Shown here one piece after another: positions 12,358-20,091 of a stretch of DNA of 64,000 nucleotides (its first letter is position 1; the number at the start of each line of letters is the position of its first letter). The stretch covers positions 12,083-76,082 of the forward strand of contig CAKZTQ010000032.1 in the NCBI GenBank assembly GCA_937921735.1, written 5' to 3'. Source of the DNA: an uncultured archaeon (lineage in GTDB: Archaea > Hadarchaeota > Hadarchaeia > Hadarchaeales > Hadarchaeaceae). The notes beneath the pieces are model-generated. The model was not told where the DNA came from and made no database searches. It was given only the letters and a program-made list of their open reading frames with translations. The position numbers and the translations under genes were made by a program.

Positions 12358-13554
12358 ATGTACGACGTCGCGATAGTGGGCGGGGGTCCTGTTGGCTGTT
12401 TCGCCGGCAAGTTGTTGGCCGAGCGTGGTCTCGACGTCGCCGTGATCGAGGAACATGCCGAGATAGGCCATCCCATGTGTTGCGCTGGTGTGGTGGGCGT
12501 CGGCGGCCTCCGCGAGCTGGGGATTAGACCGGGCAAGTGGGTGCTCAACGAACTTAGGGGTGCGAGGCTCTACCCGCCCTCGGGGAGCCCTGTGAGCTTG
12601 AGCCGGGGAAGGGTAGAAGCTCTGGTAATAGACCGTGCCGCTTTCGACAGGGAACTCGCGGCATCGGCTGCAAGGTCCGGCGCCCGCTTTCTCATGCGCA
12701 GCAGGTGCGTGGACATCTCGGTCGGCGAGCAGGTGAAGATCAAGGTCGAAACAGAGGGAAGGCTTCGCGAGATCGCCTCGCGCCTCGTCATAGGCGCAGA
12801 TGGTCCGAACTCCTTGGTCGCGCGCAAGGTCGGCCTTCTGAGGTCACGTCAGTTGATAAATTGCGCCCAGGCGGAGGCGATCGCCGACATCCATGCAGAG
12901 ACTGCCGAGGTGTACCTAGGCCGCAAATACGCGCCTGGCTTCTTCGCCTGGGTCGTGCCCGCTGGCGAGCTGTGCCGCGTAGGCGTCGGCACCGTTGAGG
13001 GTTCGGCCTTGGGGAAGCTCAAGAAGCTCTTGCGCGAGCACCCGGTCGTCTCGGAGAAGGTCGATGGGGACAAGCTCCTGCACCTCACGGCGGGGGCCAT
13101 CCCAAGGCCGTTGACGCGAGGGATGTACGCCGACGGGGTGATGTTGATCGGCGACGCCGCGGGGCAAGTGAAGCCCTTGACGGGGGGCGGGATATACATC
13201 GGCCTATCCTGCGCCAAGTTGGCGGCGGATGTTGCGGTCGAAGCCTTGGAGGAAGGCGACGTGAGCGCTAAGGTCCTGCGCAAGTACGAGGGGGCGGTTA
13301 GGGGGAAATTCGGTGGAGAGTTTGAGCTAGGCATGCGCGCTTGGCGGCTTTTCCTCGAGCTTTCCGACGAGGATCTGAGCTCCCTGCTTCGGGCGCTCGA
13401 GACACCGGATGTGAGGGCTACCCTGTTGGAGCAGGCCGATTTCGATCATCACGCCAAGGTCATCTCGGCCCTCGCGAAAAGGGGGCCGAGCTTGCTCCGC
13501 TCGCTCGGGTTAAGGAGGCTTGTGAGGTACACCAGCCACATGCTTAAAAAATAA
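12358..13554 (+). CDS. Geranylgeranyl reductase family FAD oxidoreductase
   Basis: GGGPVG, C-G, DRAAFD, IGADG, GFFAWVVP, IGDAAGQVKPLTGGGI. Confidence 0.9.
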   Translation: MYDVAIVGGGPVGCFAGKLLAERGLDVAVIEEHAEIGHPMCCAGVVGVGGLRELGIRPGKWVLNELRGARLYPPSGSPVSLSRGRVEALVIDRAAFDRELAASAARSGARFLMRSRCVDISVGEQVKIKVETEGRLREIASRLVIGADGPNSLVARKVGLLRSRQLINCAQAEAIADIHAETAEVYLGRKYAPGFFAWVVPAGELCRVGVGTVEGSALGKLKKLLREHPVVSEKVDGDKLLHLTAGAIPRPLTRGMYADGVMLIGDAAGQVKPLTGGGIYIGLSCAKLAADVAVEALEEGDVSAKVLRKYEGAVRGKFGGEFELGMRAWRLFLELSDEDLSSLLRALETPDVRATLLEQADFDHHAKVISALAKRGPSLLRSLGLRRLVRYTSHMLKK

Positions 13555-13761
13555 GGCGGAGATTCGACCCCTCGACTACTCTTCGGCAGGGCAATTGCAC
13601 CCCACCGCTTTTCGTCTCGGGGCCTTTTTCCCGCGGTTCTTGCCTCCGCGCCCACCACCGGGCGCATTAGCCTAGCCCTTCCCAAGTTCCCTTGGTTCCT
13701 GCAAGGCTCCCCGCCGCCCTTAGGCGCCGGTTCGGCCGTCACCGCGGGCTTCCTCTCCGCC
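13555..13761 (-). ncRNA. Putative structured non-coding RNA of unrecognised family (207 nt)
   Basis: Terminal helix GGCGGAGA/UCUCCGCC, nested CCCGCGGU/ACCGCGGG, CCAAG-GGAA-CUUGG and UGCGCCC/GGGCGCG. A-rich linkers; TATA-like TATTTAAG about 25 nt upstream. Confidence 0.65.
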
Positions 13762-14003
13762 AATTTTATTTTGAAAATTTTCCCTTAAATAACTGGTGGA
13801 ATGTCTTATTTCTGACCAAAGTGGACGATTTTCGCCCTGGATCAATCTGCTGGGGTGTGGCGTTTGTAATTTCCTCCCTTATCACGTCGCTACATCGACG
13901 AAGTTTTTGTTTATCGCAGATAGGCCTTATGCACCCCACGCGGCAGGAGCTGCTGACGGAGTGGGCTCTCCATGAATTTTATCCTTCAAATGCAATAATT
14001 AGC

Positions 14004-15023
14004 ATGATGCCCGCCAACCTACCTCCCGAATATCTGAAGGCGGAGGAGCGATACCTCCGCGCCAGGACGCTGGAGGAGAAGATCCTCGCGACGCAGGAGC
14101 TCATCCGCTTGGCCCCCAAGCACAAGGGCACCGAGAAATTGCTGAAGGTGCTCAAGAGGCGCCTGTCCAAGCTTCGCGAGGAGCTCCGCAGGCGGGAGAT
14201 GCGCCGGGTGGGAGGGGGCCCGAGCTTTCACGTCAAGAAGGAGGGTGTGGCACAAGTTGCGCTCGTAGGCGTCCCCAACTCAGGGAAGTCCACGTTGCTG
14301 AGGCAGCTAACGGGTGCCCAGCCGGAGGTAGCGGATTATCCCTTCACCACGCGCGAACCGGTGCCCGGTATGATGCAGTTCGAAGACGTGCAGGTACAGC
14401 TCGTCGAGATCCCCGCGATAATAGAAGGTTCGAGCTTGGGAAGGGGCCTGGGCGCCCGCCCCTTGAGCGCTGCCCGCAATGCCGATGCCATCGCCCTCGT
14501 GGTGGACGCCTCCAACGAGCCGCTGAGGCAGATGGAAACCCTCCTTTCTGAGCTCTGGGCGGCCGGCGTGCGGCTAAATAGATTTGCGGGAGAGGTAGTC
14601 GATGGGTTCGAGGAGCACAGCGAATCCCTCGTTGACAGACGCGCGGTTATCGTTGCGACGAAGGGGGATCTCCCTGGCGCTGAGGAAGGGTTCGAGTTGT
14701 TGTGCGGCAAATATGGCGAGAGGTTCCCGGCCGTCCTCGTTTCCCCCGTTGCGGGGAGTGGTCCGACGGAGGTCAAGCGTCTGATATTCGAGAGCTTGGG
14801 CCTCGTGCGGGTGTACACCAAGCGCCCAGACGAGCCACCATCCGAGCGCCCGTTGGTGTTGCCGAAGGGCTCCACCATCTTGGATGTAGCGAGGGCCGTC
14901 CACAAGGACATCGCAAGGGGGCTGAAATTCGCTAAGGTGTGGGGGTCCGCCCGCTTTCCCGGTCAACAGGTGCCTCGAGACTACGTGCTCCAAGACAAGG
15001 ACATCGTCGAGCTGCACGTGTGA
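14004..15023 (+). CDS. DRG/Obg-family GTPase with TGS domain
   Basis: PKHKGTEK, GVPNSGKST, YPFTT, VPGMM, C-terminal TGS domain (KVWG..F.GQ). True start about 14004-14007. Confidence 0.9.
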   Translation: MMPANLPPEYLKAEERYLRARTLEEKILATQELIRLAPKHKGTEKLLKVLKRRLSKLREELRRREMRRVGGGPSFHVKKEGVAQVALVGVPNSGKSTLLRQLTGAQPEVADYPFTTREPVPGMMQFEDVQVQLVEIPAIIEGSSLGRGLGARPLSAARNADAIALVVDASNEPLRQMETLLSELWAAGVRLNRFAGEVVDGFEEHSESLVDRRAVIVATKGDLPGAEEGFELLCGKYGERFPAVLVSPVAGSGPTEVKRLIFESLGLVRVYTKRPDEPPSERPLVLPKGSTILDVARAVHKDIARGLKFAKVWGSARFPGQQVPRDYVLQDKDIVELHV

Positions 15024-20003: not shown

Positions 20004-20091
20004 TGGTGCGGGGGCGGGGATTTGAACCCCGGAACCCCTACGGGACAGGCTCCTGAAGCCTGCGCCGTTGGCCAGGCTTGGCTACCCCCGC
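20004..20091 (-). tRNA. tRNA-Leu(CAG), CCA encoded
   Basis: GCGGGGGTAGCCAAGCCTGGCCAACGGCGCAGGCTT-CAG-GAGCCTG...GGTTCAAATCCCCGCCCCCGCACCA; long variable arm, no intron. Confidence 0.97.

Follow-up and report, generated by a model that had tools for sequence, protein, structure and literature searches.

Among bacteria, the raiA motif, OLE, ROOL and GOLLD are orphan non-coding RNAs (ncRNAs) that are free-standing and structured. They are restricted to certain lineages, covary strongly, have their own promoters and terminators, and their function is not deducible from neighbouring genes. As for archaea, we know of very few structured RNAs beyond rRNA, tRNA, RNase P RNA, the RNA of the signal recognition particle (SRP), guide RNAs and a small number of riboswitches. 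Here we describe an RNA gene in a stretch of 64,000 nucleotides (nt) from an uncultured archaeon of the Hadarchaeaceae, phylum Hadarchaeota (GenBank assembly GCA_937921735.1, contig CAKZTQ010000032.1, positions 12,083 to 76,082). We refer to this whole stretch as the window. An initial annotation had proposed that 13555..13761 on the minus strand is a free-standing ncRNA, possibly a new class or a highly divergent RNase P-like RNA. Our analysis confirmed that 13555-13761 is a real structured ncRNA gene, 207 nt long, of a family that had no match in local Rfam scans. The family has the properties listed above in common with the four bacterial RNAs, but it is unrelated to them in sequence and fold, is archaeal, and has several diverged paralogues per genome. 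It is also shorter than OLE, ROOL and GOLLD.

The gene is defined by its fold, by the boundaries of BLAST and covariance-model matches, and by covariation. A blastn search with positions 13540-13800 of the window gave matches in 19 of 41 related genomes, and the full-length matches started and ended at the coordinates of the RNA (38-246 of this query). We aligned 25 copies, leaving out a near-identical copy from a sister genome (L004), a partial match (L025) and a duplicate locus (L026). RNAalifold placed 54 base pairs on this alignment, 40 of them with compensatory changes. The structure that we tested on the 25 sequences had 60 pairs, with the inner hairpin of the long form of the family added. 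Standard pairs filled 95.0% of its 1452 cells as compared to 77.3% after shuffling, and 43 of the 60 pairs had changed on both sides as compared to 29.0 ± 2.0 in the shuffles, a control that does not remove the relatedness of the sequences. None of 500 shuffles reached any of five measures. When the pairing partners were slid by 1-3 columns, a control that keeps relatedness, pairing fell to 32-45%.

Searched with a covariance model of the RNA, 51 of 66 Hadarchaeota genomes had matches, 125 in all and 1-6 in each. The window copy scored 179.8 bits (E 1.3e-50) and the boundaries of the match were those of the gene, 13555-13761. Homologs and covariation, on which the function of the element had been said to depend, are both present: the family occurs across most of the genomes searched and its helices covary strongly. 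Conservation is also seen between strains. Contigs of a related strain, taken from DNA-like assemblies (four runs, contigs of 267 nt to 22 kb), had no differences across 13555-13761. In the flanks they differed from the window by 19 substitutions on one side (13300-13554) and by at least 13 substitutions and 6 indels on the other (13762-13891). Because the RNA has no differences while its flanks in this strain differ at 19 and at least 13 sites, it appears from these sequence comparisons to be under purifying selection.

An exact-pattern scan with the most conserved 26 letters of the RNA, run on one genome per prokaryote species, matched 19 stretches. Eighteen of these carry Hadarchaeota, Hadarchaeales, Hadarchaeum, Hodarchaeaceae or Hadesarchaea in their titles and one is titled 'uncultured archaeon'. 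This pattern matches just 18 of 70 family copies and was the sole genome-wide look outside the phylum, so it is no proof of absence elsewhere. As far as searched, the family seems to be restricted to Hadarchaeota. No description of it was found in titles and abstracts of the literature on ncRNAs of Hadesarchaea or Hadarchaeota and on novel archaeal structured ncRNAs, a coverage that leaves subscription journals and supplements outside.

Read on the minus strand from 13761 to 13555, the RNA runs GGCGGAGAGGAAGCCCGCGG...GGGGUCGAAUCUCCGCC. Its minimum free energy (MFE) was -116.4 kcal/mol as compared to -85.6 ± 4.4 kcal/mol for 200 dinucleotide shuffles, none of which equalled it (z -6.99). The fold of the plus strand had -89.4 kcal/mol and a z of -4.53. 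Because of this difference in z, the minus strand is the favoured folding strand, in line with an earlier remark that G-U pairs favour it. The overall fold is a three-way junction closed by pairing of the 5' and 3' ends of the RNA. In the closing helix, P1, the 5' strand GGCGGAGA (13754..13761, minus strand; RNA positions 1-8) pairs with UCUCCGCC (13555-13562; RNA positions 200-207). This is helix 1 of the alignment, where 7 of 9 pairs had double-sided changes and 99.1% of cells were paired.

Domain 1 (13630..13748, minus strand) is seen in the MFE fold and in alignment helices 2-6. It is closed by P2, an 8-bp helix of CCCGCGGU with ACCGCGGG (RNA 14-21/125-132, or 13741-13748/13630-13637), inside which come an internal loop rich in purines and then a helix of 3 bp that opens into a four-way junction. 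The junction bears three hairpins (13711-13730, 13669-13708 and 13648-13665), and its strands GAA, GGAG, (A)UAA(G/U) and GA are nearly invariant. The MFE fold has the hairpin CCAAG-GGAA-CUUGG, set on AGCCU/AGGCU, and an arm GCGCCCG/UGGGCGC that can be read in the sequence. Domain 2 (13566..13624, minus strand; RNA 138-196) corresponds to alignment helices 7-10 and in the MFE fold consists of three stacked helices, at 13619-13624/13566-13571, 13614-13616/13574-13576 and 13599-13607/13584-13592. A GGCCCC/GGGGUC helix bears the inner 9-bp arm, and a conserved internal loop, GAAAA opposite GAGUAG, lies between helices of this domain. All pairings that had been listed for the element (the end helix, domain 1, the GNRA arm and a CCCC...GGGG arm) were present in the sequence and in the MFE fold.

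Judged by eye against consensus motifs, the GAAAA/GAGUAG loop may be a sarcin-ricin or loop-E motif (AGUA/GAA), and AUAA/GA may be a UAA/GAN-type junction. Several loops were also compared by eye with the K-turn, K-loop and T-loop consensus; they did not fit it, and these readings were dropped. A scan of 50 sequences for stacked non-nested covarying pairs found no pseudoknot.

Signals for transcription are found on both sides of the RNA. A TATA-like box, TTATTTAA, can be read directly at 13785..13792 on the minus strand, 24-31 nt 5' of the first G, where such a box had been noted at about 25 nt upstream. We looked for similar signals at the 69 distinct copies with enough flanking sequence, using loose regular expressions of our own making. 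A TATA-like word at -38..-22, typically near -27, occurred in 64 of the 69 copies as compared to 73 of 2100 positions drawn at random from these loci (3.5%). Oligo-T terminates archaeal transcription, and a T-run, TTATTTTTT (13546..13554, minus strand), immediately 3' of the last C is a likely terminator. Across the family a T-run occurred within 25 nt 3' of the RNA in 63 of 69 copies and at 305 of 2100 random positions (14.5%). In addition, as had been annotated, no gene on the same strand follows the window copy; the next gene is convergent. Because no same-strand gene follows, we consider the window copy a free-standing RNA rather than a leader. The TATA-like signal, the T-run, the lack of a same-strand gene after the RNA, the strong covariation and the occurrence in 51 of 66 genomes together bear out the proposal of a free-standing ncRNA of a possibly new class.

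A tree of 70 distinct copies had three clades, which we designate L, S1 and S2. The L clade (41 copies, ~230 nt) is distinguished by an additional domain 2 hairpin, whose loop, GUGGUCGAGA, is invariant. The S1 clade (9 copies, ~207 nt), at a locus with DRG-GTPase and GGR-like genes, includes the window copy and is without the L-type hairpin bearing loop GUGGUCGAGA. The S2 clade (20 copies, ~198-212 nt) is found at a locus with moeA ... glnA/AOR. The genomes of families f2 and f5 have no form other than L, each with a single copy 30-40 nt upstream of PolB, and L is the older form of the RNA family. Some S1 copies are solitary and others stand 5' of an L copy as a tandem; such S1 and L pairs were found in one genus. 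Near-invariant unpaired segments are common to all three clades. These are GGAAG after P1; GAA, GGAG, AUAA and GA at the four-way junction; GGGAAAAAG, which links domain 1 to domain 2; the two sides of the GAAAA/GAGUAG loop in domain 2; and UCGAA, which precedes the 3' strand of P1.

The genome from which the window comes (G000) has 1.06 Mb and is 83% complete. The covariance-model search gave one match in it, which is an under-count there. A second copy, the last 82 nt of an L-type RNA, lies at the end of contig C4 (~67059-67140, minus strand), directly upstream of PolB and with a T-run after it. Because this truncated L copy is present besides the S1 copy of the window, the genome carries at least two copies of the family.

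Comparison with known classes gave no identity for the RNA. Local Rfam cmscan searches at E ≤ 10 with the window copy, one S2 copy and one L copy returned no plausible family. None of the models of RNase P RNA, SRP RNA, 5S rRNA, tRNA-like RNAs, riboswitches or ribozymes matched. An Rfam scan of the whole window at gathering thresholds had 0 matches, a weak blank. Such whole-window blanks are unreliable because this one missed a bona fide tRNA-Leu that scored 50.5 bits (cut-off 29) in the local Rfam scan. This tRNA-Leu(CAG) gene was located by ARAGORN at 20004-20091 on the minus strand.

It had been asked whether canonical RNase P and SRP RNAs exist elsewhere in the genome, and both do. SRP RNA was rejected as an identity for the element, there being no match to the model (RF01857) and a canonical SRP RNA at G000:C11:129656-129963 (154.8 bits). 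5S rRNA (RF00001) is similar in having a three-way junction closed by paired ends and, as read from the sequence, a loop-E-like AGUA/GAA loop in the 3' arm, but the family is nearly twice as long (207-232 nt vs ~120 nt) and has a four-way junction in its 5' arm. 5S rRNA was also rejected, with no match to the model and canonical 5S genes of 121-122 nt in five of five relatives searched. No 5S rRNA was found in the 83%-complete genome of the window itself. A mobile element was considered as well. A degenerate core pattern had 0 matches in viral contigs, an L copy had no blastn match in plasmid and phage collections, and neither repeats nor transposase genes were seen among the neighbours.

The RNA adjoins a convergent gene. 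As annotated, its 3' end at 13555 abuts the stop codon of a plus-strand open reading frame (ORF), 12358..13554, which encodes a 398-amino-acid (aa) FAD-dependent oxidoreductase that is GGR-like (FAD_binding_3, 1.4e-16; Lycopene_cycl; DAO). The T-run TTATTTTTT overlaps the final codons and the stop codon of this gene. On the other strand the letters of the T-run (13543-13554) spell Leu-Lys-Lys-stop, the last codons of the GGR-like gene, and the two convergent genes have 12 bp of signal in common. On the other side of the RNA is a divergent gene for a DRG-type GTPase (13971..15023, plus strand; MMR_HSR1 and TGS). The GGR-like neighbour recurs at 16 of 44 family loci and the GTPase at 14 of 44.

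The contexts of the 70 copies were compared within flanks of 1.5 kb (early loci) or 3 kb (later ones), so that the counts are lower bounds. DRG and/or GGR-like genes were found at 25 of the 70 copies, AOR within the flank at 14, PolB downstream and co-directional at 13, glnA at 12, moeA at 11 (all of them S2, 11/20) and nifU/nifS at 4. Ordinary housekeeping genes make up most of the neighbours, and the arrangements have largely been inherited. The downstream gene is convergent at the DRG/GGR locus (25/70) and also at the NifU/NifS locus (4/70). At the PolB-upstream loci of family f2, the T-run of the RNA sits where the TATA box of a leaderless PolB mRNA would be.

To explain the family we favour, at somewhat better than an even chance, a trans-acting and compactly folded scaffold RNA that is recognised through its invariant junctions. 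The RNA would be transcribed independently from its own promoter and terminator signals and would act in trans as a stable structured scaffold, and a protein partner, or possibly a small ligand, would recognise the invariant junctions and internal loops. The sequences show the fold and its conservation, the promoter and terminator signals, the copy number and the paralogy; transcription, action in trans and the existence of a partner are what we infer. The covariation is of SRP or RNase P grade in an RNA of 200-230 nt and spans a phylum of ~1-Mb genomes. Genomes this small rarely keep 2-6 copies of something without use. There are also three old paralogue groups, and strain-level conservation is full despite differing flanking genes.

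Several observations weigh against this scaffold reading. The covariance model had no match in 15 of 66 Hadarchaeota genomes, two of which are 90-95% complete, and because it was not found in these the RNA is not essential everywhere. A more sensitive rerun of the model on five RNA-negative genomes gave two weak matches only. These, in genus g15, were rejected, one because it falls within the coding sequence of PolB and the second because it has no family features. In G009 (95% complete, 9 contigs) and G023, two genomes of the same genus as the RNA-positive G016, the gaps between the GGR-like and DRG genes are 41 nt and 15 nt and RNA-free; the gap in the window is 416 nt. In one genus the DRG/GGR locus has S1 copies that are decayed, truncated or internally deleted and stand 5' of an intact L copy (76.1, 28.5 and 24.2 bits; L068:1815-2022, L067:1323-1472, and L046:2300-2380, which equals L063:1330-1410), and the S1 paralogue seems dispensable in that genus. 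Nor was a partner protein found. The gene-content comparison described below left too many candidates, dominated by one metabolic module, and the single candidate that was profiled, a multi-copy protein of 158-185 aa, occurs in 28 of 66 genomes with a distribution unlike that of the RNA. This protein (G016 C1:43339-43812 and paralogues; G000 C4:45271-45735) had no Pfam match at E ≤ 0.0001, reaches up to 6 copies per genome and is missing from G009. Finally, some copies have a co-directional gene directly downstream: PolB at 13 of 70, cation-efflux at 4, AOR at 1, radical-SAM at 1, and a Zn-phospholipase-C-like gene at 2 by context search or 3 by ORF position. Paralogues upstream of such genes may have effects in cis. 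For the RNA as such, we consider it unlikely that it is the cis leader of a neighbouring gene.

The alternative that survives best, though we regard it as unlikely, is that the family is tied to the metabolism of the tungsten or molybdenum cofactor (Tuco/Moco, molybdopterin). The RNA might sense the cofactor or a precursor, or it might regulate an AOR/moeA regulon, in trans or, for some paralogues, in cis. In an unlikely but specific form of this idea, it would sense or handle a molybdopterin-type cofactor or tungstate status and coordinate a large AOR regulon, and L, S1 and S2 would serve different loci. What suggested this was the gene context. moeA lies within the flank of 11 of 20 S2 copies in four genera, usually divergent and 93-236 nt away, and an AOR gene lies within the flank of 14 of 70 copies from all three clades, including the single copy of family f4, which is between two AOR genes. 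One copy is between moeA-mobB and a radical-SAM gene, and four adjoin nifU/nifS. This adjacency is largely one or a few inherited syntenic loci, however, and not independent events, and by rough arithmetic 4-6% of random positions in the genome of the window are already within 1.5-3 kb of an AOR gene. Just two of 70 copies are directly upstream of and co-directional with a cofactor-related gene (AOR; radical SAM), and moeA is divergent at 11 of 70. The oldest and most widespread context, L upstream of PolB, which is the sole one in f2 and f5, has no link to the cofactor, and the window copy, flanked by the GTPase and the GGR-like gene, has no cofactor neighbour.

Gene content was compared as well. 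We listed ORFs of an RNA-positive genome, G016, that match the genome of the window but not G009, an RNA-negative genome of the same genus. This left 85 candidates after overlap filtering, the best 67 of which were scanned against Pfam. The largest coherent set was seven AOR paralogues, two MoeA, MobB, MoaC and two ThiS/MoaD-like proteins, plus NifS/NifU. Other candidates were hydrogenase or complex-I-like subunits, a pyruvate-ferredoxin-oxidoreductase-like enzyme and dehydrogenases. This contrast is from one genome pair that differs by more than 100 genes. AOR is present in all 51 RNA-positive genomes and all four AOR-negative genomes are RNA-negative (hypergeometric p about 0.002, with relatedness ignored), but AOR is nearly universal in the phylum (62/66 genomes), and 11 RNA-negative genomes have it, including G023 (5 copies) and all seven of genus g15. 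As a separate observation, G009 and G062, both of the genus of G016, have no AOR genes, and G009 is also without the moeA, mobB, moaC and MoaD-like genes present in G016. The pattern resembles a loss, specific to this lineage, of the entire tungsten/molybdenum-cofactor module.

The Moco/Tuco riboswitch of bacteria (RF01055) is similar to the family as a multi-stem junction RNA with conservation at the junction and an association with moeA and AOR (here for S2 and some others). Regulski et al. (2008; PMC2408646) describe tandem units of bacterial Moco RNAs with a terminator after each and between them, which recalls the tandem copies here. They also describe a GNRA (GAAA) tetraloop on P4 that docks into a receptor bulge in P2. 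The family has no such tetraloop/receptor pair. In the alignment no GAAA-capped helix is paired with a CCUAAG...UAUGG internal loop, and CCUA(A/C)G makes up a hairpin loop together with its closing pair. RF01055 matched none of the three copies scanned at E ≤ 10, and a control with the same tool, the E. coli moaA leader, scored 103.6 bits. Membership in the riboswitch class was therefore rejected because both the match and the tetraloop-receptor pair are absent. The family also differs from the riboswitch in its archaeal host and in the layout of its helices; it has a promoter and a T-run of its own, and most copies lie outside 5' leaders. We hold out little expectation that the family is dedicated to tungsten/molybdenum-cofactor biology, as the first such RNA in archaea, with a fold unrelated to the bacterial riboswitch and as a functional analogue rather than a homologue. 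If it were, RNA-level control of tungsten-cofactor and AOR metabolism would be seen for the first time in archaea, and the problem that bacteria solve with the Moco riboswitch would have a second, independent RNA solution. If it is not, the family is still a well-defined orphan RNA family.

We consider it quite improbable that the RNA acts through its position, as a cis-antisense partner of the convergent gene or as a bidirectional terminator or insulator for it (the GGR-like gene here; AOR, glnA or nifU elsewhere). A read-through transcript of the convergent gene would be fully complementary to the RNA, and at many loci the 3' ends of the two are 1-40 nt apart (GGR +3 to +16, AOR +1 to +29, glnA +32 to +40). 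The overlap of the T-run with the last GGR-like codons in the window fits this idea too, as does the structure of the opposite strand (z -4.53). Nevertheless, the conserved junctions and the strand-specific G-U pairs suggest that selection acts on the minus-strand RNA itself, and the conservation of sequence is far above what a terminator needs. In addition, copies upstream of co-directional genes and in tandem pairs have no convergent partner.

A catalytic RNA, either a new ribozyme class or a processing RNA, is in our view very improbable. The size, compact multi-junction build, invariant unpaired purines and lineage-wide conservation of the family are of a kind that ribozymes also have. There was, however, no match to an Rfam ribozyme in the local scans and no pseudoknot supported by covariation, and we saw no conserved feature resembling a cleavage site and could name no substrate. 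Besides, an essential ribozyme would not usually have multi-copy paralogues with dispensable members.

A very divergent RNase P-like RNA, as the initial annotation had suggested, is almost certainly the wrong identification. The likeness to archaeal RNase P RNA, above all the minimal type T (RF02357; types A/M, RF00373), that is, the archaeal host, a length of ~200 nt, paired ends, purine-rich linkers and GAGGAAG near the 5' end, is outweighed by a full-length canonical archaeal RNase P RNA (RNaseP_arch) in the same genome (G000:C21:46305-46592, 201.2 bits), by no RNase P model match at E ≤ 10, by 1-6 copies per genome with none found in 15 of 66, and by the layout: GAGGAAG/GGAAG is the unpaired junction strand J1/2, the bases after it form the local, nested and covarying helix 2, P2/P3 are missing before GGAAG, and no stacked non-nested covarying run was found for a P4 pseudoknot of CR-I (GAGGAAAG...) with CR-V.

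Three genomes in which the model found no RNA have other elements upstream of PolB. In G009 (L097:14935-15082) and G062 (L243, reaching the contig end) the element has ~148 nt. That of G023 is a GC-rich element of 192 nt (L242:2069-2260, minus strand) with a fold of -108 kcal/mol and a TATA-like box, for which Rfam gave no match and blastn found nothing related in the other 65 genomes. All three have a terminal helix of the family type, GGCGG(A/G)G...C(U/C)CCGCC, with unrelated interiors, and they may be decayed or fast-evolving descendants of the family. The absence of the family from such genomes is thus to be read with caution. Just upstream of these elements, G009 (C1 ~74810-74890) and G023 (L242) also have in common a conserved element of ~78 nt with the consensus GGGG.G...CCAAGCUGGCUGGGAC.GGUGUUGG.CAACGCU..GGAUGA.CAGCU...ACCAG.C.CCCC, which may be a small guide-type RNA.

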